11,878 nucleotides of DNA from a virus (taxonomy: Duplodnaviria > Heunggongvirae > Uroviricota > Caudoviricetes). The notes under the pieces were generated by a model that saw only the letters and a program-made list of their open reading frames with translations, was not told the DNA's origin and did no database searches. The stretch lies in the IMG/VR virus record IMGVR_UViG_2654587726_000023; one strand, given 5' to 3'. Shown here one piece after another: positions 1 to 10,610 of the stretch (the first letter of the stretch is position 1; each line of letters begins with the position of its first letter). Position numbers and translations under genes: made by a program.

Positions 1-2
1 CG

Positions 3-116
3 GGGATGCTGGAAAAGGGGAACGACCGCCGTTACAAGAAAAAGGCGCTCAGCAAAATTGGGGGGAAGCAGCATGTTTTTTACGTGCTGATGTTCCAGCC
101 TGAGGCAGAAGATTAA
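3..116 (+). CDS. 3-prime end of upstream CDS running off the window (possibly C-terminus of the island replication initiator/primase)
   Basis: Open frame from window edge to TAA at 114-116 (…KIGGKQHVFYVLMFQPEAED*); immediately followed by iteron array. Frame choice is uncertain because all three frames are open for most of this short stretch. Confidence 0.3.
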   Translation, partial: GMLEKGNDRRYKKKALSKIGGKQHVFYVLMFQPEAED

Positions 117-139
117 CCCCCTGTGTGATGTAAAAAGTT

Positions 140-262
140 GCGGGTTATGCGGGTTATCCTGTGTATAAGTGCATTAACTGTATGAATAAAAAGGAAATCA
201 ATAACCCGCACGTAACCCGCAAAACGGCAGTTATAACCCGCAAAAGTGCGATTATAACCCGC
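140..262. repeat. Iteron array 1: 2 abutting copies of GCGGGTTAT (140-157), a ~43 bp AT-rich spacer, then 4 copies of (A/G)TAACCCGC at 201, 212, 233, 254; putative replication origin
   Basis: Direct reading of the sequence; 9-mer in inverted orientation flanking an AT-rich core, with 21-bp spacing between later copies. Confidence 0.6.
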
Positions 263-326
263 AGAATTTCACCGTAAGGGTGTAAACAAGCGTAACCATC
301 AACGTTAAAACCGGAGAGCAGACAGC

Positions 327-752
327 ATGACAGCACAGATAGCGGCTTACGGGCGGCTGGTGGCTGACCCGCAGTTAAAGACCACCAGCAAAGGGACACA
401 AATGGCGATGGCGAGTATGGCGGTTCCCCTGCCATGCAGCCAGGCAGATGACGGAACGGCGACGATGTGGTTATCTGTCCTGGCGTTTGGCAGACAGGCC
501 GACGCACTGGCAAAACACCACAAAGGCGAACTGGTGAGCGTGGCGGGTAACATGCAGGTGAGCCAGTGGACAGGCCAGAACGGGGAAACGCAGCGGGGCT
601 GGCAGGTTATTGCAGACAGCGTAATCAGTGCGCGAACGGCGCGACCGGGCGGCAAAAAAGGTCAACAGGGCCAGGCCACTGACGCACTGAACAGGGCAAA
701 ACAACAGACAAGCCAGCACGATGACCCGTACGGGGATAACATACCGTTTTAA
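327..752 (+). CDS. ssb: Single-stranded DNA-binding protein (SSB) family protein
   Basis: 141 aa; OB-fold-like pattern (…WLSVLAFGRQADALAKHHKGELVSVAGNMQVSQWTGQNGETQRGWQV…) resembling E. coli SSB core, Gly/Gln-rich linker and C-terminal acidic tip …DDPYGDNIPF matching the SSB DDDIPF tail; GGAG RBS at 313-316. Confidence 0.7.
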   Translation: MTAQIAAYGRLVADPQLKTTSKGTQMAMASMAVPLPCSQADDGTATMWLSVLAFGRQADALAKHHKGELVSVAGNMQVSQWTGQNGETQRGWQVIADSVISARTARPGGKKGQQGQATDALNRAKQQTSQHDDPYGDNIPF

Positions 753-788
753 TTCACAACAGCGAACAGAGTAATTACGGGGGAAGGC

Positions 789-1319
789 ATGACAACGCTG
801 ACCATTAACCGGAAGCCGAAAGGCATTTACGGCACGCCGCAGAAAACGACGCAGGCGGCACAAGAGCAGGATAAAACCACATCGGCGCATAAAGTGATAC
901 CCGGCAATCAGAACGCACAGCAGAAGCCCACAGGGGCGACACCGTGGCAGCATATGACCAAAAGGCAGCGCAAAAACCGCCGACGCGTTAACCGCCTCAC
1001 TGAGATGTGGCCTGACTTATTCAGCCATAAAGCACCGAAGCCGCTTAAGGTGGGGATATTCGACGACCTGATGCAGGATATCGCCGTCAGGAGGCTGGCA
1101 TTCGGGCCGGGGGTATTACGTGCGACGCTGGCATCCTATGCGCAGTCTCCGCGCTATTACCGCGCCCTGATAGCTGGTGGCGCACGTTACGACCTGAAAG
1201 GCCAGCCATGTGGGGAAGTGACACCACAGGAACAGCAGGAGGCAGAAACACGGCTGATGGTGCTGAATGAGAAGCACAAGCGCCAGCGCCGGGCAGCAAA
1301 GGGGGATACATGCCAGTGA
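789..1319 (+). CDS. ProQ/FinO-domain RNA-binding protein
   Basis: 176 aa; basic N-terminal region (KRQRKNRRRVNRL) followed by PLKVGIFDDLMQDIA…LRATLASYAQSPRYYRALIAGGARYDLKGQPCGEVTPQEQ, closely resembling the ProQ/FinO domain core (PLKIGIFQDL…LRLYTSSWRYL…RVDLDGNPCGEL); strong RBS GGGGGAAGG before ATG 789. Confidence 0.65.
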   Translation: MTTLTINRKPKGIYGTPQKTTQAAQEQDKTTSAHKVIPGNQNAQQKPTGATPWQHMTKRQRKNRRRVNRLTEMWPDLFSHKAPKPLKVGIFDDLMQDIAVRRLAFGPGVLRATLASYAQSPRYYRALIAGGARYDLKGQPCGEVTPQEQQEAETRLMVLNEKHKRQRRAAKGDTCQ

Positions 1320-1558
1320 CATTTGAAGAAGTTCAGCAACATAAAAAGCTGCATGGTTTTGATGATCTGGAAACCACGACAGCAAAAAAATATCGTCGGT
1401 TGCTTTCTTCCGATGCGTTATTTTTTGTGGATCATCATGATTTTCTGCGTAGCTCACTGACCGGGGAAATTTTCGCAACCAACCGTGAGCAGGTGGAAGC
1501 GATGATCGAATATTTGTGGAAAATAAGACGCAGAATGCGGGAGCCAGTGAAACAATAA
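1310..1558 (+). CDS. Hypothetical small protein (82 aa), translationally coupled to upstream gene
   Basis: ATG 1310 overlaps stop of previous CDS (1317-1319), RBS AGGGGGA upstream; followed by intrinsic terminator; no recognisable family. Confidence 0.5.
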   Translation: MPVTFEEVQQHKKLHGFDDLETTTAKKYRRLLSSDALFFVDHHDFLRSSLTGEIFATNREQVEAMIEYLWKIRRRMREPVKQ

Positions 1559-1832: not shown

Positions 1833-2978
1833 ATGAAGAAATTAATCGAACTCCGCCAGCAAAAAACCGCCCTGAAAAACCAGATGCGATCCCTGCTGGA
1901 AAAAGCCGACAGTGAAAACCGCAGTCTAACCGATGACGAAGGCAAACAGTTTGATGAACTGCGTGCAAAAGCCGATTCCCTCGACACAGAAATTTCCCGC
2001 CTCGAGTCTGTGGCTGATGAAGAACGTAACCAGCCTGGTGTTCCCGTCGAAGATAAAATCACCAAAAATGAGCTACGCTCTTACATTCTGACCGGGGAAA
2101 CCCGCAACCTGTCCGGCAGTGTTCCGGCTGATGGTGGTTATACGGTTATCCCGGAACTGAACAGAGAAATTATGCGTCAGCTTTCTGATGAGTCGGTGAT
2201 GCGTAAAATCTGTACTGTTAAAACCATTCACAGTAATGAATTTAAGCAACTGGTTTCTGCCGGGGGTGCGGTCGTGGGACACGGCGAAGAAGGTGCGGCA
2301 CGTAACCAGACGGCAACCCCAAAACTGAATGAAGTCAGTATCCGCCTGTATCCGATCTACGCTTACCCGAAAACCACTCAGGAAATTATCGATTTTTCCG
2401 AAGTCGATATTATGGGCTGGTTATCTTCTGAAATTGGCGACACTTTCGTTGATACCGAAGAAACGGATCTGGTTTCCGGTGATGGCGAGAAAAAAGCCAA
2501 AGGTTTCCTGACTTTCCCGCGCGCTACGGATAATGACAAAACCCGTCCTTTCGGTACGCTCCAGACGAAAAAAGTGACTGGCAGTCTCAGCGCCGATATG
2601 CTGATTGACCTGAAATTTACGCTGCGCAATAAGTACCGCAAAAAAGCTGTATGGGTGATGAACTCAAATACAGCCGCCTCCGCACAAAAACTGAAAAATG
2701 CCACTGGTGATTACATCTGGCGCGATCGTTTACAGGCTGGTGATCCTGATTCTCTGCTGGGGCTTCCGGTTGAATATCTGGAATTTATGCCAGACGGTGT
2801 GATTGCAGTCGGTGACTTTAAGCGCGGTTATTTCATCGTTGACCATAAAACCGGTACGCGTACCCGTCCGGATTTCAGCGAGCCTGGATTCATTAACATC
2901 TATACCCAGAAATATCTGGGCGGTGGTGTGGTGGATTCGAACGCCATCAAGATTCTGGAAATTCAGGCTGGCAAGTAA
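1833..2978 (+). CDS. Major capsid protein, HK97 family (with N-terminal coiled-coil delta/scaffold-like domain)
   Basis: 381 aa; N-terminal ~100 aa coiled-coil region followed by capsid fold motifs (…LVSGDGEKKAKGFL…, …NKYRKKAVWVMNSNTA…, …SLLGLPVEYLEFMPDG…VGDFKRGYFIVDH…) typical of HK97-type capsid proteins. Confidence 0.85.
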   Translation: MKKLIELRQQKTALKNQMRSLLEKADSENRSLTDDEGKQFDELRAKADSLDTEISRLESVADEERNQPGVPVEDKITKNELRSYILTGETRNLSGSVPADGGYTVIPELNREIMRQLSDESVMRKICTVKTIHSNEFKQLVSAGGAVVGHGEEGAARNQTATPKLNEVSIRLYPIYAYPKTTQEIIDFSEVDIMGWLSSEIGDTFVDTEETDLVSGDGEKKAKGFLTFPRATDNDKTRPFGTLQTKKVTGSLSADMLIDLKFTLRNKYRKKAVWVMNSNTAASAQKLKNATGDYIWRDRLQAGDPDSLLGLPVEYLEFMPDGVIAVGDFKRGYFIVDHKTGTRTRPDFSEPGFINIYTQKYLGGGVVDSNAIKILEIQAGK

Positions 2979-2984
2979 TGAGCA

Positions 2985-3008
2985 AAGGGGGCTTCGGCCT
3001 CCTTTTTC
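2985..3008 (+). terminator. Intrinsic terminator immediately after capsid gene
   Basis: Hairpin GGGGGC-ttcg-GCCTCC (7 bp stem with one G-U pair, UUCG tetraloop) followed by TTTTT. Confidence 0.65.
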
Positions 3009-3027
3009 AGCTTTATGGAGTACACCG

Positions 3028-3588
3028 ATGAAAAACACCGATTTTGAAATCCGTACATCTGAACTGACCGCCAGCGATAAAAAACTGGTGGGTTATGCCG
3101 TTCGCTGGAACAGCCTTTCAGAAATTATCTGGGACGAGTTTCGCGAACAGTTCACGCCGGGGGCTTTTGCTGACTATCTGGCGGCAGGTAATGATGTGCG
3201 CTGTCTGTATGAGCATGACTATACCCAACTGCTGGGGCGTACCAAATCCGGCTCACTGGTACTGACTGAGGATAACACCGGGCTACGTTTTGAACTGACA
3301 CCGCCAAATACCCAGCTTGGAAAAGATGTGCTTACGCTGGTGGAACGTGGCGATATTACAGGAATGAGCTTTGGCTTTCGCGCATTATGCGAGGAGTGGA
3401 ATATCGCGCAAAAACCGTATCTGCGTACTGTAACCGCAGCAGAACTCCGTGAAATCACGATAACATCGATGCCTGCTTATCCCGAATCCGGCGTGGAGAT
3501 TGCCCACCGTTCGTTGTTTGCACAGTACCCTGAATTACGCCCGGCAGGAAATAATCGTCATCGCTGGGCTGAACTGGCGGGGTTGTGA
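3028..3588 (+). CDS. Prohead maturation protease, HK97 family (S78/U35)
   Basis: 186 aa from ATG 3028 with GGAG RBS at 3017-3020; motifs …GYAVRWN…, …GAFADYL…, …LYEHD…LLGRTKSG…, …GDITGMSFGF… typical of HK97 prohead protease; ORF-track start at 2803 lies inside capsid gene and is rejected. Confidence 0.8.
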   Translation: MKNTDFEIRTSELTASDKKLVGYAVRWNSLSEIIWDEFREQFTPGAFADYLAAGNDVRCLYEHDYTQLLGRTKSGSLVLTEDNTGLRFELTPPNTQLGKDVLTLVERGDITGMSFGFRALCEEWNIAQKPYLRTVTAAELREITITSMPAYPESGVEIAHRSLFAQYPELRPAGNNRHRWAELAGL

Positions 3589-3589
3589 T

Positions 3590-4804
3590 ATGTGGTGGCC
3601 TTTTAGTCGTAAAAAAAGCGATCTGCGTAACCTGTCCATTGATGATTTTCTGGCGTTGTCTGGTGTACCAAATACCGGATCCGGAGAATATGTTTCTGCC
3701 GGGACGGCTGAATCATTGCCTGCTGTGATGAACGCGGTTTCTGTCATCGCTGAGGCGGTGGCCACGATGCCGTGTTACCTGTATCTGGTACGCAATGATA
3801 AGGGCAGAGAGGCGCGGGAATGGCTGGACAGTCACCCGGTAGATATTCTGCTGAATGAGCAGCCTAATTCGTGCCTGACACCTTACCAGTTTAAACGCAC
3901 AATGATGCGTCACTGCCTGCTGAACGGTAACGCCTATGCGGTTATTGAGTGGGGGCGGGACGGGCAGCCAAAATCACTTCATCCTTATGCGCCGGGGTGT
4001 GTTGTACCGGAACGCACAGGCACACACAAATACCGCTATACCATCACCGAACCCTGTACAGGAACGGTGCGCACGTATTTACAGGAAGAAGTTCTGCATC
4101 TCCGCTATGCCTCGGATGATGGCTTTCTGGGGCGTTCCCCCGTCACGATTTGCCGTGAGGCGCTGGGGCTTGGCCTTGCTCAACAGCGTCACGGAGCCAG
4201 CATTATGAAAGATGGCATGATGGCGGCAGGGATTATCACGTCAGGTGAATGGCTGGACGGCGTGAAAGGTAAACAGGCATTAGACGCACTGGAACGCTAC
4301 AAGGGGGCGAAAAATGCCGGAAAAACGCCAATCCTTGAAGGGGGCATGGATTACAGGCAGCTGGGGATGAGTAACCAGGATGCGGAATGGCTGGCCTCCC
4401 GTCGCTTCTCCATTGAAGACATCGCCAGGATGTTCAACGTGTCGCCGATTTTTCTTCAGGAATACAGCAACAGCACCTACAGCAATTTCAGTGAGGCGAG
4501 CCGCGCATTTCTGACCATGACAATGCGCCCGTGGCTGGCGAACTTCGAACAGCAAATCAAGGCCGCTTTGCTGGTGACTTCTCCCGTACCTGGTACCCGT
4601 TATCTGGTTGAGTTTGATTCAGCCGATTTACTGCGCGCCACACCCACCGAACGTTATGCCACGTATGAGAAAGGGATTAAGAGCGGGATCATGAATCCGA
4701 ACGAAGCTCGCGAACGCGAGGGTATGCCGCCGCGTGAAGGTGGTGATGAGTTCAGCCAGGCATGGAAACAGACTGTGGAAATTAAAGGGAGAAAAGATGA
4801 GTGA
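3590..4804 (+). CDS. Portal protein, HK97 family
   Basis: ~404 aa from ATG 3590 (2 nt after protease stop); portal motifs …LLNGNAYAVIEW…, …HLRY…GRSPV…, …LEGGMDY…, …SRRFSIEDIARMFNVSPIFL…. Confidence 0.85.
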   Translation: MWWPFSRKKSDLRNLSIDDFLALSGVPNTGSGEYVSAGTAESLPAVMNAVSVIAEAVATMPCYLYLVRNDKGREAREWLDSHPVDILLNEQPNSCLTPYQFKRTMMRHCLLNGNAYAVIEWGRDGQPKSLHPYAPGCVVPERTGTHKYRYTITEPCTGTVRTYLQEEVLHLRYASDDGFLGRSPVTICREALGLGLAQQRHGASIMKDGMMAAGIITSGEWLDGVKGKQALDALERYKGAKNAGKTPILEGGMDYRQLGMSNQDAEWLASRRFSIEDIARMFNVSPIFLQEYSNSTYSNFSEASRAFLTMTMRPWLANFEQQIKAALLVTSPVPGTRYLVEFDSADLLRATPTERYATYEKGIKSGIMNPNEAREREGMPPREGGDEFSQAWKQTVEIKGRKDE

Positions 4805-5099
4805 AGCCAGAATTACACCTGATGAAGTCAGGGCACATCTTCGACTTGATGATGATTTATCCGGTGAAGGCGAACTTCTGAAAATGTATACCGATGCGGC
4901 GCTGGAAGCCTGCCAGAAGCATATCGGGAAACGTTTTGAAGACGGGCTGGAATTTACCCCGGCAATGCGTGTTGGTTGCCTGATGTACATCGCTTTCCTG
5001 TACGAGAACAGGGAAGCAGTTTCACCAGTGGAGCAGTCTGAACTGCCTATGGCTATTTCTGCGCTCTGGTCGGTTTATCGTGATGTGGGGGTGTACTGA
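4797..5099 (+). CDS. Head-tail connector / DNA-packaging protein (phage gp6-like)
   Basis: 100 aa from ATG 4797 (overlaps portal stop in ATGAGTGA), RBS GGGAGA; N-terminus MSEARITPDEVRAHLRLDDD…LLKMYTDAALEA resembles gp6-like head-tail connector family. Confidence 0.55.
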   Translation: MSEARITPDEVRAHLRLDDDLSGEGELLKMYTDAALEACQKHIGKRFEDGLEFTPAMRVGCLMYIAFLYENREAVSPVEQSELPMAISALWSVYRDVGVY

Positions 5100-5539
5100 T
5101 GCCGTGGCAACCATTAAGGCGATGCACTGAGCCGGGCTGTAATAAGCGCGTGAAGTCCGGCAAGTGTGAAGAGCACAGACGGGCTGTATGGCGTGCAGAG
5201 GATGCCAGACGGGGACACCGCCGCGCGCGCGGGTATTCCCGACAGTGGGACAAATACCGCGCCCTGTACCTGAGCAAAAACCCGTTATGCGTGCGTTGTC
5301 TGGCTAAGGGGATTTATACGCCAGCTCTTGTGGTGGATCACATCATCCCCATCAATGGCGGCGGTGATGTTCTCTTCTGGCCTGAGTGGAACCACCAGGC
5401 ATTGTGCCAGACGTGCCACAACCGTAAGACGACACGGGAAGATCCAGCCACGAAAGCGAACCGTAAGGCGGGCATGTATCGCGAGCAGGAAGAACGGGCA
5501 GCACACCGTAACGACTGGATGTATGGCGATGATGACTGA
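5099..5539 (+). CDS. HNH endonuclease (packaging-associated)
   Basis: 146 aa; start ATG overlaps connector stop (TGATG); Cys-rich zinc region and HNH core …VVDHIIPINGGGDV…WNHQALCQTCHNRKT…; positioned just upstream of terS as in HNH-dependent cos packaging systems. Confidence 0.8.
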   Translation: MPWQPLRRCTEPGCNKRVKSGKCEEHRRAVWRAEDARRGHRRARGYSRQWDKYRALYLSKNPLCVRCLAKGIYTPALVVDHIIPINGGGDVLFWPEWNHQALCQTCHNRKTTREDPATKANRKAGMYREQEERAAHRNDWMYGDDD

Positions 5540-5708
5540 ACAGGAGCAAACCAGGCTGATACGTGGACTGATAAGGCAGCGTGACTTATGGAAGACACAG
5601 GAGACAGGGCACAAAGCCAACAGGACAGGGCGCACAGAACGCACCACAGCGAAGCAATTAACCGACCGTGACCGCGAGGTCATGGAATGTTTTCGCAATC
5701 GCTGGTGA
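5529..5708 (+). CDS. Hypothetical small basic protein (59 aa)
   Basis: ATG 5529 overlapping end of HNH gene in another frame; Arg-rich MMTEQEQTRLIRGLIRQRDLWKTQETGHK…; no clear RBS; could be non-coding. Confidence 0.3.
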   Translation: MMTEQEQTRLIRGLIRQRDLWKTQETGHKANRTGRTERTTAKQLTDRDREVMECFRNRW

Positions 5709-5827
5709 GGCCGTCAGAGGGGGTGGGGGTGGTTTTCAGGACGAAACCGTCCCTGCCGGACACCGACCGCCTCCTCAAATTTTTGTGCACGGGAATTTTT
5801 TTGAAAATAATTGGGCGAAAAAAGAAC

Positions 5828-6184
5828 ATGGCAAGACCACCAAAAGCCCCCGCTTACCTGGATGAAATCGCGGTCAGGCAGTGGAAGGAAAAATCGCGCC
5901 AGCTTTCCGGACGGGAAGACCTTACCCCCGCCGACTGGAGCAATCTGGAGCTGTATTGCGTTAACTACTCCATATACCGCAAAGCCGTCGAAGACCTTGC
6001 CACGCGCGGGTTCAGCATTGTTAACAGTCAGGGCAGCGAGAGCAGAAACCCTGCCCTGAGCGCAAAGGCTGACGCTGAAAGAATAATGATCAAAATGGCT
6101 TCTTTGCTGGGTTTTGACCCGGTAAGTCGCCGCAGAAATCCACCGGAAACAGAGGAAGAGGACGAGCTTGACCGCCTGGCATGA
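5828..6184 (+). CDS. Terminase small subunit (P27-like)
   Basis: 118 aa from ATG 5828; …PADWSNLELYCVNYSIYRKAVEDLATRGFSIVNSQGSESRNPALSAKADAERIMIKMASLLGFDP… resembles P27-family small terminase; directly precedes and overlaps terL. Confidence 0.65.
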   Translation: MARPPKAPAYLDEIAVRQWKEKSRQLSGREDLTPADWSNLELYCVNYSIYRKAVEDLATRGFSIVNSQGSESRNPALSAKADAERIMIKMASLLGFDPVSRRRNPPETEEEDELDRLA

Positions 6185-7829
6185 GTACGCAGAAGGCGTA
6201 AAAAACGGCAAAATTACGGCCTGTAAACGACTGAAACAGGCCGTTAAACGGTATTTTTCTGACCTTGAAAACCCCCTTTACACGTTCGATCCGGAGGTCG
6301 TGGAGCGGTTTATTGCCTTTTCCAGGGTGTGTCCGCACGTAAAAGGCGCAATGCGCGGTAGCCCCATTGAGCTGGAGCCGTGGCAGCAGTTCGCCTTTGC
6401 GTGCATCCTGGGCTTTAAGGTTAAGGCCACCGGACGGCGCAAATACACCAGCGCATTCATTGAAGTGCCGCGAAAAAATGCCAAATCCACGGTCGCCGCT
6501 ATCCTGGCTAACTGGTTTCTGGTTATGGAAAACGGGCAGCAGGATATTTACACCGCCGCCGTGAGTCGTGATCAGGCGCGGATCGTGTTTGATGATGCGC
6601 GTCAGATGTGCCTTTTATCCCGACCGTTACGAAAGCGGGTAAATATTCAGGCACACAAGGTGATACACCCGAAAACCAACAGCCTGTTAAAGCCACTGGC
6701 AGCAAAAGCGGCAACCATTGAAGGTACAAACCCGAGTCTTGCCATTGTGGATGAATATCACCTGCACCCTGACAACGGGGTTTATTCCGCGCTTGAACTG
6801 GGAATGGGGGCGCGTCCGGAGGGGCTGTTATTTGCCATCACCACATCGGGGAGCAACGTTGTTTCAGCCTGTAAACAACACTATGACTATTGCTGCCAGA
6901 TACTGGATGGTGAAGAGGTGAACGAATCCATGTTCGTGCTGATTTACGAGCTGGATGATGAAAGCGAGGTTGACGATCCGGCGATGTGGATAAAGGCGAA
7001 TCCCAATATCGATGTTTCCGTCGATCGTGAAAAACTGGCCTCAACCATCCAGAAAGCGCGGGGTATTCCGTCGCAGTGGGTGGAAATGCTCACCAAGCGA
7101 TTCAATATCTGGTGTCAGGGGGCTACACCGTGGATGGGTAGCGGTGCATGGGCGGAGTGCGCCGGAACGTTCGCGGAGGCGGATTTATACGGTCAGGAGT
7201 GCTACGCGGGGCTGGACTTATCATCAACCAGCGATATTTCCAGCGTGTGCTATGCCTTTCCGGTCGGTAAAAAGATTATGCTGGTTTCCCGTCACTATCT
7301 GCCGGAATTTCAGCTACAGAACCCCGCCAATAAAAACCGCGCCATCTATCGCCAGTGGGTAAAGGCGGGCTGGATACGCACAACACCGGGTGACTGCATT
7401 GATTATGACCGTATCCGTGATGACATCATGGCGGATGCAGAGAATTTCAATATCAGGCTGGTGGGCTTCGATACATGGAACGCCACGCACCTGAGGACGC
7501 AGCTACAGGGGGCAGGATTTGAGGTGGAGCCGTTCCCGCAAACATACCTTCGTTTCAGTCCGGCGGCGAAATCGTTCGAAGTTTTTGTTAACCGGAAGGT
7601 GATTGTGCATCGTGGCGATCCGGTGCTGGCCTGGTCAATGAGTAATGTTGTGATGCAGAGTGACGCAAACGCCAATATCAAGCCGAACAAGAAAAAATCA
7701 TCCAACAAGATAGACCCGAGCGTTGCGGCTCTGATGGCGTTTGGCACATTCCAGGCAGAACATGAGGAATTTGCATTTGATATAAGCGACAGCCACAAAG
7801 AGCGGCTTGCGGCGTTTGATGGGGTATGA
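6168..7829 (+). CDS. Terminase large subunit
   Basis: 553 aa; apparent TTG start at 6168 with GAGGA RBS, overlapping terS end; motifs …LEPWQQFAFACILGF…, ATPase region …EVPRKNAKSTVAAIL…, …AIVDEYH…, nuclease-domain region …GLDLSSTSD…. Confidence 0.9.
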   Translation: MTAWHEYAEGVKNGKITACKRLKQAVKRYFSDLENPLYTFDPEVVERFIAFSRVCPHVKGAMRGSPIELEPWQQFAFACILGFKVKATGRRKYTSAFIEVPRKNAKSTVAAILANWFLVMENGQQDIYTAAVSRDQARIVFDDARQMCLLSRPLRKRVNIQAHKVIHPKTNSLLKPLAAKAATIEGTNPSLAIVDEYHLHPDNGVYSALELGMGARPEGLLFAITTSGSNVVSACKQHYDYCCQILDGEEVNESMFVLIYELDDESEVDDPAMWIKANPNIDVSVDREKLASTIQKARGIPSQWVEMLTKRFNIWCQGATPWMGSGAWAECAGTFAEADLYGQECYAGLDLSSTSDISSVCYAFPVGKKIMLVSRHYLPEFQLQNPANKNRAIYRQWVKAGWIRTTPGDCIDYDRIRDDIMADAENFNIRLVGFDTWNATHLRTQLQGAGFEVEPFPQTYLRFSPAAKSFEVFVNRKVIVHRGDPVLAWSMSNVVMQSDANANIKPNKKKSSNKIDPSVAALMAFGTFQAEHEEFAFDISDSHKERLAAFDGV

Positions 7830-8119
7830 CGAGAATGAGCGAAACCGAACTACTAAAAATAATCCGTCGCGTTACCGGAATCAGCCAGGAAGCAGGCAAA
7901 CAGGAGGCCACGCAGCCGGACAGCGTGATAGCCGAAAATTACGCGCGTGTGGTGGCTGAGGTGATGCGCCGTGACGGTATCGAGCTTAACGGCGTGGATA
8001 TACGCAATATACGCACCAGAGTTCTGGAGTTGTTGTCATATCGTCGCCGCGTGGAGATGTACCAGGAGAAAGAAAAAATTACTTACCACTGGAAGAAGCC
8101 GGAGCGGTTACGACGTTAA
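7826..8119 (+). CDS. Hypothetical protein (97 aa) downstream of terL
   Basis: ATG 7826 overlaps terL stop (ATGA); alternative ATG at 7835; no recognisable family. Confidence 0.45.
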   Translation: MTRMSETELLKIIRRVTGISQEAGKQEATQPDSVIAENYARVVAEVMRRDGIELNGVDIRNIRTRVLELLSYRRRVEMYQEKEKITYHWKKPERLRR

Positions 8120-8123
8120 CTTG

Positions 8124-8170
8124 TGGTGACATACCGTGACGGAGAGTGACAACCAGTGACACACAGTGAC
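8124..8170. repeat. Five helically phased copies of GTGAC at exact 10-bp intervals (core at 8126, 8136, 8146, 8156, 8166)
   Basis: Direct reading: tgGTGACataccGTGACggagaGTGACaaccaGTGACacacaGTGAC. Confidence 0.7.
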
Positions 8171-8192
8171 AAAAAGACGGTATTTAAATAGA

Positions 8193-8222
8193 GTGGGTGT
8201 TTAATACCCCCCGTTTTTTTTC
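8193..8222 (+). terminator. Possible weak intrinsic terminator (short GC stem then T8 run)
   Basis: GGG…CCC short stem followed by GTTTTTTTT at 8212-8221; stem is weak. Confidence 0.3.
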
Positions 8223-8373
8223 GTGTGGTGCATGGTCAAAATGACCACGGAGAAGATACGCACCGAAGCAGAACAATTACCGTAGGTTAAAGCGACAGTA
8301 TTCACACCAGCAACCTGATTATCAATTTTCAGCCGTTCGGTGGCATCACTGGCCCCATTTTCCTGATGGGGTT

Positions 8374-8526
8374 GCGGGTTATTTGGGGGGGATTTGCGGG
8401 TTATTTTGAATGTCTCGCGGGTTACGCTTTGGCTAATATTCAAACGCATCATTTTTTAACTCATTGATATTAAAGAATAAAAAATACTTAGCAAGCGAAG
8501 ATAACCCGCTAACCCGCATAACCCGC
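8374..8526. repeat. Iteron array 2: 3 copies of GCGGGTTA(T/C) at 8374, 8396, 8417 (about 21-bp spacing), ~75 bp AT-rich spacer, then 3 abutting copies of (A)TAACCCGC at 8501-8526; same 9-mer as array 1
   Basis: Direct reading; same inverted-iteron-flanking-AT-core architecture as 140-262. Confidence 0.6.
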
Positions 8527-8879
8527 ACTGTTTTGTATATATATATACGAAAAATTGCATTCAGGAGGTGGGATCGAAATCCCTACAACCCATTGCTTAT
8601 GGGACTGCCCGCCCCGTCAAATTTTTACACCCGCGAAAAATACTTCAAGCTGGTGGGCATGATGCCGATATGGGGATCCCCATGTCGACATTAACGCCCC
8701 TCATGAATTGGCGTGCTTCCCCCTGGAAAGATGACCCGCCTGTATATTTCTTGTGTCTATTTGTTCCACGTTGTTTCATACAGTGCACCGAACGGTGTAG
8801 TTACTGGTGTAGTCATTTTGCGATTTTTAAAGTTATCTAAGATATTATTTGTCGCTTAAATTCAATTAGTTATGAGTAT

Positions 8880-10247
8880 TTGATTATAAATAGCGGATAT
8901 GAATATCCGGCGAAAAAAATCACCATCAACCTTGCTCCAGCCGATCTGCCAAAAGAAGGGGGACGATATGATTTGCCTATCGCTATTGCGTTACTGGCGG
9001 CCTCAGAACAGCTTACAGCCAATAAGTTAGATGAATATGAATTAGTCGGAGAACTGGCGCTTACAGGCGCTCTGCGTGGCGTTCCCGGCGCAATCTCCAG
9101 TGCAACTGAAGCTATTAAGTCGGGCAGAAAAATTATCGTCGCGAAAGATAACGAAGATGAAGTGGGGCTAATTAACGGTGAAGGATGCCTGATAGCCGAT
9201 CATCTGCAGGCTGTCTGCGCGTTTCTGGAAGGTAAGCACGCTCTCGAACACCCGAAACCAACTAATGCAGTATCCCGGGCGCTACAACATGATCTCAGTG
9301 ATGTTGTCGGTCAGGAGCAAGGAAAGCGAGGACTGGAAATTACCGCCGCTGGCGGGCACAACCTTTTACTGATTGGACCGCCGGGAACAGGTAAAACAAT
9401 GCTCGCCAGCCGTATTAATGGCCTTTTGCCAGATTTAAGCAATGAAGAGGCACTGGAGAGCGCTGCGATATTAAGTCTGGTAAATGCTGAATCAGTACAA
9501 AAACAATGGCGGCAGCGCCCGTTCCGCTCACCTCATCACAGTGCGTCGTTAACTGCGATGGTGGGCGGTGGTGCAATTCCAGGGCCAGGTGAAATTTCGC
9601 TGGCGCATAACGGCGTGCTTTTTCTTGATGAGCTACCTGAATTTGAACGGCGTACACTGGATGCCTTGCGAGAGCCGATTGAATCCGGGCAGATCCATCT
9701 TTCACGCACACGAGCAAAAATAACCTATCCAGCCCGTTTCCAGCTTGTCGCGGCAATGAATCCCAGCCCTACCGGACATTATCAGGGAAACCATAACCGC
9801 TGCACACCAGAACAGACATTACGTTATCTCAACCGGCTCTCGGGGCCCTTTCTCGACCGCTTCGATCTCTCACTGGAGATCCCATTACCGCCCCCCGGCA
9901 TTTTGAGTAAAACGGTAGTGCCGGGAGAAAACAGCACCACCGTTAAACAACGTGTAATGGCCGCCAGAGAGCGCCAATTTAAGCGGCAGAATAAACTGAA
10001 CGCCTGGCTGGATAATCCGGAAATACGCCAATTCTGCAAGCTTGAAAGCGAAGATGCGCAGTGGCTGGAAGAAACGCTGATCCATCTGGGGTTATCGATT
10101 CGTGCCTGGCAGCGGTTATTGAAAGTTGCACGAACCATTGCTGATATTGATCAGTCTGACATTATCACACGTCAGCATTTGCAGGAGGCAGTTAGCTATC
10201 GTGCGATTGACCGTTTGCTCATCCATCTGCAAAAACTACTGACATAA
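8880..10247 (+). CDS. comM: ComM (YifB) Mg-chelatase-like AAA+ competence protein, 5-prime truncated by island insertion
   Basis: 455 aa frame beginning IINSGYEYPAKKITINLAPADLPKEGGRYDLPIAIALL…, Walker A GPPGTGKT; corresponds to E. coli YifB from about residue 51 onward as I recall it; upstream in-frame sequence diverges and hits a stop at 8838-8840; only a TTG at 8880 with no RBS. Confidence 0.85.
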   Translation: MIINSGYEYPAKKITINLAPADLPKEGGRYDLPIAIALLAASEQLTANKLDEYELVGELALTGALRGVPGAISSATEAIKSGRKIIVAKDNEDEVGLINGEGCLIADHLQAVCAFLEGKHALEHPKPTNAVSRALQHDLSDVVGQEQGKRGLEITAAGGHNLLLIGPPGTGKTMLASRINGLLPDLSNEEALESAAILSLVNAESVQKQWRQRPFRSPHHSASLTAMVGGGAIPGPGEISLAHNGVLFLDELPEFERRTLDALREPIESGQIHLSRTRAKITYPARFQLVAAMNPSPTGHYQGNHNRCTPEQTLRYLNRLSGPFLDRFDLSLEIPLPPPGILSKTVVPGENSTTVKQRVMAARERQFKRQNKLNAWLDNPEIRQFCKLESEDAQWLEETLIHLGLSIRAWQRLLKVARTIADIDQSDIITRQHLQEAVSYRAIDRLLIHLQKLLT

Positions 10248-10271
10248 AAAAAGGGCATTTCGCCCTTTTTA
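10246..10271. terminator. Bidirectional intrinsic terminator between convergent comM and maoP
   Basis: AAAAAAAGGGC-atttc-GCCCTTTTT hairpin flanked by A-run and T-run. Confidence 0.75.
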
Positions 10272-10610
10272 TTAATCGTCAGAATCGGTGTAGTCTTCAG
10301 CACCTTCAACCTGCGGTTTACCGCCGGAAAGGGTGTGAAAACGTTTTGGACGCTTGATACGCGTCATATACTTGGACCACACGCGTTCTGCTTCTGTCAC
10401 TGGTTCACGTTCGCCACGGCATACTGCTACGAAGAGTTTCTCTTCCTCGGTAACCGGCTCGCGTTTGCCAAGATCCAACTCATTGAAGGCATAACCATGA
10501 CGCTCAAGCAGTTGTGCCTCTTTGATGGTGAAGTCACCATGACGAGAGAATCCACGTGGATAATGTTTATTGTCGAAATATCGATTAGTCGTCGTAAAGC
10601 TTTCCGCCAT
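10272..10610 (-). CDS. maoP: MaoP (YifE), macrodomain Ori protein
   Basis: 112 aa [60 protein letters not shown]… recognised as E. coli YifE. Confidence 0.9.

Follow-up and report, generated by a model that had tools for sequence, protein, structure and literature searches.

In all likelihood, a capsid-forming phage-inducible chromosomal island (cf-PICI) of about 15 kb has inserted site-specifically into yifB/comM, and its attR core is at positions 8883-8898 of the window (the whole stretch of 11,878 nucleotides analysed); YifB would be inactive while the island is resident, and precise excision of the island would restore the gene. The window holds only the right 8.9 kb of the island. The attL site and the integrase lie outside it and were read from carrier genomes, among them L002, which is 99.3% identical to the window, and from genomes of this identity the window's copy is presumed to be complete. 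The features are listed in Table 1.

Table 1. Island and host features of the window, with putative recombination sites
Feature	Positions	Strand	Basis or remark
Replication and accessory region, end part	1..1558	+	primase end, SSB, ProQ/FinO, hypothetical
DUF927 primase, C-terminal end	1-116	+	last 116 bp of the gene in the window
SSB	327-752	+	PHROGs, Pfam
ProQ/FinO-family protein	789-1319	+	PHROGs, Pfam
Hypothetical gene	1310-1558	+	coordinate mapping
Head and packaging module	1833..7829	+	PHROGs, Pfam, coordinate mapping
HK97-type major capsid	1833-2978	+	
S78 prohead protease	3028-3588	+	
Portal	3590-4804	+	
gp6-like head-tail adaptor	4797-5099	+	
HNH	5099-5539	+	
Small ORF	5523-5708	+	
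TerS	5828-6184	+	
TerL	6168-7829	+	
Small island gene, phrog_1561	7835-8119	+	without Pfam or PADLOC match
Small island gene	8201-8452	-	without Pfam or PADLOC match
Noncoding island right end, attP-derived P' arm and upstream repeats	8453..8882	+	no family matches; no promoter-like site
Conserved P' arm block, candidate arm-type integrase sites	8753..8823	+	conservation across islands, motifs repeated in left arm
Island-derived in-frame stop, 13 unrelated codons, then TTG 8880	8838..8882	+	translation, SD energies; stop is TAA 8838-8840
att core at attR, 16-bp direct repeat ATTATAAATAGCGGAT	8883..8898	+	attB/attL/attR comparison
Putative core-type integrase site C, ATTATAAAT	8883..8891	+	imperfect inverted repeat of C' TTTTATAAA
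Putative 7-bp overlap (strand exchange), AGCGGAT	8892..8898	+	spacer between C and C' inverted repeats
yifB/comM 3' fragment, codons 53-506	8883..10247	+	without promoter, RBS and first 52 codons

Compared base by base, identity to K-12 yifB begins at position 8883, codon 53 (ATT, Ile53), and the frame then runs for 454 codons without stops or frameshifts, encoding a protein 98.2% identical to K-12 residues 53-506 with no internal stops. In the list of open reading frames of the window, the fragment belongs to ORF 8880..10247 (455 aa, TTG start), in which the Pfam ChlI match does not begin until profile position 33 of 121, with complete Mg_chelatase and Mg_chelatase_C domains after it. The abrupt start of the comM frame reported by the first-pass annotation is real, and its position shifts from about residue 51 to 53 on comparison with K-12. 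The annotation also read the in-frame upstream sequence correctly, as unrelated and closed by a stop: the translation across the junction is ...FKVI*DIICRLNSISYEYL-IINSGYEYPA, and the part before the homology is unrelated to YifB. As it had further described, the only start is a TTG without a ribosome-binding site; TTG 8880 is the sole ATG, GTG or TTG between the stop at 8838-8840 and the start of homology, and is a weak candidate re-initiation codon, with an anti-SD duplex energy of -1.5 kcal/mol vs -11.9 kcal/mol for the native yifB ATG. Sequence to the right of 8883 was matched in 5426/5426 complete E. coli genomes and sequence to the left in 27/5426, so the break at this position is not due to chance.

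Based on the sequence and the structure of a homologue, YifB is very probably inactivated by the insertion, the first of the two outcomes originally supposed. For the ChlI (Lon-like) domain, the score falls from 151.2 bits in the intact protein to 100.1 bits for the 3' fragment and 45.6 bits for the 5' stub. The lost residues 1-52 include E22, S26, K43, R46 and R50, which are the equivalents of inter-subunit (S26-R50, E22-R117) and pore (K43, K46) residues of Legionella ComM, whose Lon-like domain was reported to be necessary for oligomerisation and DNA translocation (PMC11612176). We considered it very unlikely that translation restarts on the 3' fragment, at TTG 8880 or TTG 8973, and yields an N-terminally truncated YifB with some or all of its function. 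In favour of this, the frame is open over all 454 codons, the fragment has the entire AAA+ and C-terminal domains, and the in-frame TTG 8973 (residue 83) is preceded by an SD-like GAAGGGGGA (-10.8 kcal/mol), from which a shorter product is possible if the fragment is transcribed. Set against this, TTG 8880 has almost no SD pairing, 8210-8880 contains no plus-strand promoter-like site, the upstream DNA has a convergent gene as well as two hairpins resembling terminators (8195-8209, 8350-8374), and the Lon-like domain would have lost at least 32 of 121 profile positions together with the residues named above. The fragment shows no decay because the insertion is recent, its DNA being 99.9% identical to intact yifB alleles. 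To our knowledge, no phenotype has been established for E. coli YifB.

The nature of the island was left open by the first-pass annotation and is specified here. On its gene content, the island is a cf-PICI, a phage satellite. The left part, as seen in L002, encodes a tyrosine integrase, Phage_AlpA (2.7e-18), DUF4222 and the DUF927 primase (Pfam), and the left half is a PICI-type int-alpA-Icd-like-DUF4222-primase module with rightward transcription. PHROGs and Pfam gave strong matches for seven of the eight head and packaging components in the window. A second head-tail gene (head closure), found in L009 and L010, is absent from the window island, which has 10/11 core components, corresponding to SatelliteFinder 'Type B', and may be a partly defective variant because this gene is missing. 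In L002, L009 and L010 the DNA between the att sites has no annotated tail or lysis genes, and all island ORFs of the window are accounted for; the small ORFs of unassigned function and ProQ had no PADLOC match to defence systems. The distance between the att sites falls within the cf-PICI range of about 10-18 kb, integrase, AlpA regulation and primase replication modules are present (in L002), lysis genes are lacking, as is a full tail module, and this organisation agrees with the published cf-PICI criteria (10.1101/2025.02.11.637232; PMC10085698).

The same genes could be read as a degraded prophage remnant whose tail and lysis genes were deleted, given that the capsid, protease, portal, adaptor, HNH, TerS and TerL are all phage-type, that the head-closure gene is missing in the window copy, and that the excised attP junction was not found in viral contigs (30-mer) or metagenome contigs (28-mer). 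We give this reading little credence, as the att junctions are clean on both sides, the element measures 15.05-15.14 kb in divergent carriers, its left half is the rightward PICI-type module, and the whole is organised exactly as cf-PICIs are defined. The integrase shares 84% identity with its counterpart from a classical PICI inserted at the EcCICFT073 site, and the same packaging module, 99% identical, also occurs behind a different PICI integrase.

The attB-spanning 316 bp are intact in 5398/5426 complete E. coli genomes, where yifB is contiguous with 506 codons and starts 52 residues before the junction. About 27 genomes have an island of ~15.05 kb between a 59-codon 5' yifB stub and the 3' fragment, and in every carrier examined the 5' fragment and a matching repeat lie ~15 kb to the left. 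The island is 15,048 bp long in L002 and 15,073-15,136 bp in L009, L010 and L004. The interpretation as an attR junction with insertional truncation of comM, first proposed from the window sequence, is thus borne out by every comparison proposed with it: K-12 yifB aligns up to the junction, the 5' fragment and its direct repeat were found, uninterrupted sites are abundant, close relatives do not start at this position, and the gene is split in >20 independent complete assemblies. An assembly chimera, or a yifB that naturally begins here in this lineage, would account for the abrupt sequence change and nothing else, and has a negligible probability given the same junction in those genomes and in three metagenome or IMG/VR contigs, the 5' fragment in each carrier examined, and the contiguous gene elsewhere.

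The islands at this site differ from one another in their integrase alleles (93.6-96.3% identical), in the replication gene (a DUF927 primase or a RepA helicase) and in the accessory gene (ProQ or PerC), and host-side SNPs also differ among the carriers; with different islands and different host SNPs at an identical junction, these are therefore independent site-specific events. Neither the integrase (searched as back-translated peptides) nor a 25-mer of the island side plus core was found in the GTDB species representatives, which may mean that the element is restricted to E. coli or just that the representative genomes lack it.

The attL copy of the 16-bp repeat reads ATTATCAATAGCGGAT; the two copies are exactly identical over AATAGCGGAT (8889-8898), and the repeat common to attL, attR and attB is ATTAT[C/A]AATAGCGGAT. 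The junctions are identical in L002, L009, L010, L006, L007 and L008, and in L004, where the insertion is in preA (TATCGAT), evidently usable as a secondary site, the island-side boundary is the same as in the yifB-site islands. Elements inserted by a tyrosine integrase are marked by a core direct repeat at each end and by relatives in which attB is uninterrupted, and both were seen here. At position 8888 the island A always stays with attR and the host C with attL, and for this reason we placed the exchange to the right of 8888. The putative site C and its partner C' (TTTTATAAA, at the island left end outside the window) are complementary at 7/9 bases, and we infer from this arrangement that the spacer AGCGGAT is the overlap. 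In the related phoQ-type attP the arrangement is alike, GTGATAAAA-GGACATA-TTTTATCAA, with 8/9 bases complementary, giving a 9-7-9 core in two related systems, and the core derived here for the phoQ-type system, GGACATATTT, is the published EcCICFT073 core.

The imperfect duplication that the first-pass annotation suggested as a remnant of the att core, TATGAGTAT (8871-8879) and TATGAATAT (8898-8906), does occur in the sequence but does not represent the att repeat. Of its two copies, one belongs to the island and one to the host; their spacing of 17 bp is too wide for sites flanking an overlap, and the island copy is not conserved at the same site, reading TAAATGATT in L009 and TTGGGTTTA in L010. 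Its occurrence is also near chance, with 4 matches (≤1 mismatch) in the window vs 1.4 expected, a number equalled in 11/200 shuffles.

The 165 bp at 8665-8829 are 94-97% identical at island right ends in about 1000 other E. coli genomes, and the P' arm block is their conserved stretch, showing no variation when yifB-type and phoQ-type islands are aligned. The candidate arm sites are TTGTTCCACGTTGT (8773-8786) and the tandem GGTGTAGTTA / GGTGTAGTCA (8796-8815), and these motifs recur in the left arm (L002 5533-5600). The integrase of L002 has Arm-DNA-bind_3, Phage_int_M and Phage_integrase domains, and the motifs probably function as arm-type integrase sites. Together with the inverted core-type sites around an overlap of 6-8 bp, this is the layout of a tyrosine-integrase attachment site, in which the positions of binding and cleavage are predicted. 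ORF 8568..8840, in frame with the yifB 3' fragment, had no Pfam or PADLOC match and was treated as non-coding because of this and its overlap with the conserved arm DNA. An Rfam scan of the window returned only two host tRNAs (Trp, Asp), the rest being sub-threshold noise, and no RNA family in the island right arm.

We propose that the island's own tyrosine integrase inserts it into codons 53-58 of yifB/comM, by recombination of an attP ATTATAAAT-AGCGGAT-TTTTATAAA with its flanking arm-type sites and an attB ATTATCAAT-AGCGGAT-ATGAATATC. The 5' piece, which encodes a 59-residue stub (...IINSGFL*), stays behind the yifB promoter ~15 kb to the left, outside the window, and the 3' piece is left without promoter, RBS and the first 52 codons; because the island supplies no replacement N-terminus, YifB/ComM would be inactive during residence. 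The sole mismatch in the repeat, ATC vs ATA, is synonymous (both Ile54), and precise excision would therefore restore an intact yifB. By analogy with characterised PICIs, excision may be AlpA-dependent and triggered by a helper phage, and the attP junction of the excised island would read GATTATAAATAGCGGATTTTTATAAATTAG.

It is conceivable, and in our view unlikely, that the yifB site is more than a harmless place to land, and that by switching ComM off the cf-PICI lineage reduces its own recombination-mediated loss or alters the uptake of incoming DNA, as is known from AbaR islands in Acinetobacter, with helper-induced excision transiently restoring ComM; if true, a recombination helicase of E. 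coli would be switched reversibly by a satellite. The biology is as expected, as a mobile element in comM and cf-PICIs in E. coli were both already known, and with a known kind of element in a gene known as a mobile-element target we regard the assignment as correct but ordinary. It adds a precisely mapped attachment site, with core, putative overlap and arm sites, to the E. coli PICI/cf-PICI repertoire, one that destroys a conserved gene, unlike the published intergenic PICI sites. In genome annotation, a yifB pseudogene that is split in ETEC-like or animal E. coli is best read as a satellite insertion and not as gene decay.

Several known systems resemble the yifB island. With published cf-PICIs it shares the size of ~15 kb, int-alpA-primase on the left and capsid-protease-portal-connector then hnh-terS-terL on the right (the Proteobacteria order), the absence of tail and lysis genes, and a site-specific tyrosine integrase of a kind shared with classical E. 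coli PICIs; it differs in lacking the head-closure gene, with 10/11 core components, and in its yifB integration site. For one of them, EcCIEDL933, helper-phage-dependent induction and transfer in island-made small capsids with borrowed tails have reportedly been shown.

A survey of regulated gene integrity (Mageeney et al. 2020, PMC7192596), also described as domain disruption by integrative elements, listed yifB among its new candidates, and in its supplement comM is given as the site of S. Typhi prophage ST35; the ST35 core begins 3 nt downstream of the yifB cf-PICI core. As in such elements, an integrase clade repeatedly disrupts one Pfam domain without restoring it: the ChlI score ratio of attB to attL/R is 1.51 (151.2 vs 100.1 bits; cut-off of that survey, 1.1), and at least two independent integrations by a tight integrase clade occurred at one position, as the survey demands. 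The yifB candidate of the survey may belong to another integrase clade, and we saw no sign of excision serving as a regulatory switch.

Interruption of comM by AbaR islands in Acinetobacter lowers transformation-mediated island loss (PMC11441513). AbaRs likewise interrupt comM recurrently and specifically; unlike the yifB cf-PICI, they are Tn7-like transposons, do not use an integrase and att sites, and insert at another position. We know of no dependence of E. coli on natural transformation, and for this reason the selective logic of AbaRs may not extend to it.

Also related are the EcCICFT073-type PICIs at ycfD(roxA)-phoQ, with core GGACATATTT (Fillol-Salom et al. 2018, PMC6092414). The yifB core, ATTAT[C/A]AATAGCGGAT, was not found among the eight E. 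coli PICI sites of 2018 in that paper, a comparison that does not extend to the six cf-PICI attB sites of 2022/23. Integrase identity is 83-86%, and conserved between the two types are the arm-type motifs, the C' site at the left end (TTTTAT[A/C]AA) and the putative 9-7-9 geometry. In contrast, overlap and C site are AGCGGAT and ATTATAAAT at yifB, GGACATA and GTGATAAAA at phoQ, and insertion at phoQ is intergenic and does no harm, whereas at yifB it falls within a conserved domain. With integrases 84% identical and the same arms, the differing 7-bp overlap and C site suggest that a small change retargets a conserved integrase scaffold, and comparison of the two types may aid integrase engineering and the annotation of satellite boundaries.

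The comM gene (yifB in E. coli) is interrupted at the right end of a capsid-forming phage-inducible chromosomal island (cf-PICI). The first-pass annotation had proposed that the comM frame starts abruptly at about residue 51, at a probable attR; this was borne out with a correction of two residues, as base-by-base alignment to K-12 yifB (506 codons) showed identity beginning at window position 8883, codon 53. The in-frame translation upstream reads ...FKVI, a TAA stop (8838-8840), DIICRLNSISYEYL and then IINSGYEYPA, and the TTG at 8880 is the only ATG, GTG or TTG between this stop and the yifB homology. Its anti-SD pairing is -1.5 kcal/mol, versus -11.9 kcal/mol for the native K-12 yifB start. 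In the encoded product, the Pfam match to ChlI, which is the Lon-protease-like N-terminal domain in ComM/YifB, begins only at position 33 of the 121-position profile and is followed by complete Mg_chelatase (AAA+) and Mg_chelatase_C domains.

Features of the window and their best matches
Feature	Location	Description
yifB 3' ORF	8880..10247	TTG start, 455 codons
Major head protein	window ORF	phrog_10 / Phage_capsid
Prohead protease	window ORF	Peptidase_S78
Portal	window ORF	Phage_portal
Head-tail adaptor Ad1	window ORF	gp6-like connector
HNH	window ORF	HNH endonuclease
TerS	window ORF	Terminase_4
TerL	window ORF	TerL ATPase and nuclease domains

We compared window positions 8400-10300 with 5426 complete E. 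coli genomes using megablast. All 5426 matched rightward from 8883, only 27 matched leftward, and a 316-bp K-12 probe across the site was unbroken in 5398 of the 5426. E. coli AST217 is 99.3% identical to the entire window and has the 5' yifB fragment about 15 kb leftward of the 3' fragment. Between the fragments are genes for a tyrosine integrase, an AlpA-type regulator, an Icd-like protein, DUF4222 and a DUF927 primase (the int-alpA-Icd-like-DUF4222-primase left half of carrier islands), then SSB, ProQ, HK97-type capsid, prohead protease, portal, head-tail connector, HNH, TerS, TerL and two small ORFs. The left edge of the window falls within the primase gene, thus the window contains the island's rightmost 8.9 kb, followed by the attR junction, the yifB 3' fragment, maoP, hdfR, tRNA-Trp and tRNA-Asp; attL and int lie outside it. 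The earlier reading was right in substance, and island insertion in yifB now explains it precisely.

The element is 15.05-15.14 kb long, and no tail- or lysis-like genes were found between the att sites of three carriers (AST217, L009 and L010). Its gene content and order match the published cf-PICI definition, including the Proteobacteria gene order (10.1101/2025.02.11.637232; PMC10085698), and by its genes the island is classified as a capsid-forming PICI. A 'head closure' gene, located between portal and connector in the carriers E423 and PEC148, is missing from the window island and AST217, leaving 10 of the 11 SatelliteFinder core components; tblastn found no trace of a 'phage head closure protein' gene in the window. 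The regions set against each other here were 4797-5099 of the window, 12648-12986 of L009 and 12331-12669 of L010. Copies without the gene may borrow its function, or may be transfer-defective. No excised attP form was found in public viral or metagenome contigs, and every copy of the element seen was in E. coli-type sequence.

The empty site attB reads ...GCC ATTATCAATAGCGGAT ATGAATAT..., attL reads ...ATTATCAATAGCGGAT joined to TTTTATAAATTAG..., and attR in the window reads ...TATTTG ATTATAAATAGCGGAT joined to ATGAATAT.... A 16-mer, ATTAT[C/A]AATAGCGGAT (8883-8898), forms the direct repeat, with exact identity over 10 bp (8889-8898). The junctions were identical in all carriers inspected (AST217, L009, L010, two metagenome contigs and one IMG/VR contig), although these differ in host-side SNPs and in their islands, with integrase alleles 93.6-96.3% identical, a DUF927 primase or RepA helicase as replication gene, and ProQ or PerC as accessory. 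The yifB insertions are independent site-specific events and not a single clonal insertion. A short imperfect duplication, TATGAGTAT (8871-8879) and TATGAATAT (8898-8906), had been put forward as the att remnant; we rejected it, as one copy is island DNA and the other host DNA, L009 and L010 have unrelated sequence in place of the island copy, and the pair occurs in the window at a near-chance number.

Joining the right and left island ends gave the attP ...TTTG ATTATAAAT AGCGGAT TTTTATAAA TTAGTG..., that is, two imperfect 9-bp inverted repeats (7/9) flanking a 7-bp spacer. Related islands at roxA(ycfD)-phoQ, with integrases 83-86% identical to the yifB type, have an attP of the same geometry, GTGATAAAA GGACATA TTTTATCAA; the core derived for them, GGACATATTT, equals the published EcCICFT073 core (PMC6092414), which validates the approach. 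The mismatch at 8888 partitions uniformly, attL with the host C and attR with the island A, suggesting that strand exchange occurs to its right, within AGCGGAT (8892-8898). The integrase carries an Arm-DNA-bind_3 domain, and a block at 8753-8823 is conserved across both integrase types. The surrounding 165 bp (8665-8829) recur with 94-97% identity at the right island end in about 1000 further E. coli genomes. The block contains TTGTTCCACGTTGT and tandem GGTGTAGTTA/GGTGTAGTCA, both repeated in the left arm adjoining int, and we read these motifs as candidate arm-type integrase sites. The published 'att site core' of EcCIDI14, CGGTGTAGTTAATGGTGTAGTTAATT (Table S1, PMC6092414), equals the tandem arm-type motif (8796-8815), which these islands have close to each end, and is probably not a true crossover core.

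In E. coli E300010 (L004), an island with an identical integrase protein (WP_032345684.1) lies in preA instead of yifB (junctions ~2526 and 17618). Its termini are unchanged, which independently confirms the island end. The host overlap, TATCGAT, matches the island AGCGGAT poorly, with the host version retained in attL and the island version in attR; the insertion is probably a natural case of off-target integration at a secondary site. Packaging modules 99% identical to that of the window also occur behind the phoQ-type integrase at roxA-phoQ (e.g., FDAARGOS_1249). Identity to the window there ends at 8828, about 55 bp short of the core, which indicates that satellites otherwise identical exchange the integrase gene and core-proximal attP as one module.

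A ProQ/FinO-family RNA-binding protein is encoded at 789-1319 (Pfam ProQ, 6e-24), and a PerC-family regulator occupies the equivalent position in L009, L010 and the phoQ-type island L003, making this an exchangeable accessory slot. A small minus-strand gene (8116-8452), an accessory gene at the island's right end, has 83 codons in the window and E300010 and 111 in AST217 because of a 1-nt indel, and had no Pfam, PHROGs-function or PADLOC match. Adjoining the upstream side of the minus-strand ORF (8201..8452), three tandem copies of (A/C)TAACCCGC (8501-8526) precede a (TA)n run and a 17-bp inverted repeat (8525-8558); these elements, kept in the yifB-type L009 and L010 and absent from L003, may serve as operator or promoter of this gene. 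A 30-bp palindrome, ATGCCGATATGGGGA/TCCCCATGTCGACAT (8662-8691), at the start of the conserved right-arm block is mostly kept in related islands and could form a hairpin or bind a protein such as an excision or architectural factor.

For YifB, the island offers no substitute N-terminus, and the 5' stub is predicted to end ...IINSGFL after 59 residues. The ChlI score falls from 151.2 bits for the intact protein to 100.1 bits for the 3' fragment and 45.6 bits for the stub; the intact/best-fragment ratio of 1.51 is above the domain-disruption cut-off of 1.1 (Mageeney et al., PMC7192596). In Legionella ComM, oligomerisation and DNA translocation need the Lon-like domain, with inter-subunit contacts S26-R50 and E22-R117 and pore lysines K43, K46 and K64 (PMC11612176). 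The first 100 residues of E. coli YifB align gap-free with this protein (8rxd; E = 2.5e-141), and the equivalents E22, S26, K43, R46 and R50 are all within the 52 deleted residues. The fragment is preceded by terminator-like hairpins and a convergent ORF, and no plus-strand promoter-like site was found in 8210-8880. Given the missing N-terminus, cut ChlI, lost contact residues and lack of a promoter, inactivation of YifB while the island is resident is the best-supported reading. The 3' fragment is undecayed (no stops, 99.9% identical to intact alleles), and precise excision would restore yifB, since the sole repeat mismatch is a synonymous Ile codon. Within yifB, a strong SD-like GAAGGGGGA (-10.8 kcal/mol; 8953-8975) stands ahead of an in-frame TTG at 8973 (residue 83). 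This context is probably incidental, but should the fragment be transcribed, internal re-initiation would be most plausible at this TTG.

Of published PICI site lists, the comparison covered the eight E. coli sites reported in 2018 (PMC6092414), and the yifB core was absent from them. Integrative elements are known to target the gene itself: yifB is among the 'regulated gene integrity' candidates (PMC7192596), yifB/comM has been described as a serine-recombinase site, and S. Typhi prophage ST35 also lies in comM, with a core beginning 3 nt downstream of the island core. AbaR islands of Acinetobacter specifically target comM, and its disruption guards the island against transformation-mediated curing (PMC11441513). 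As cf-PICIs are likewise an established family with a characterised prototype (PMC10085698), the yifB insertion is a further case of a known element type in a known target gene.
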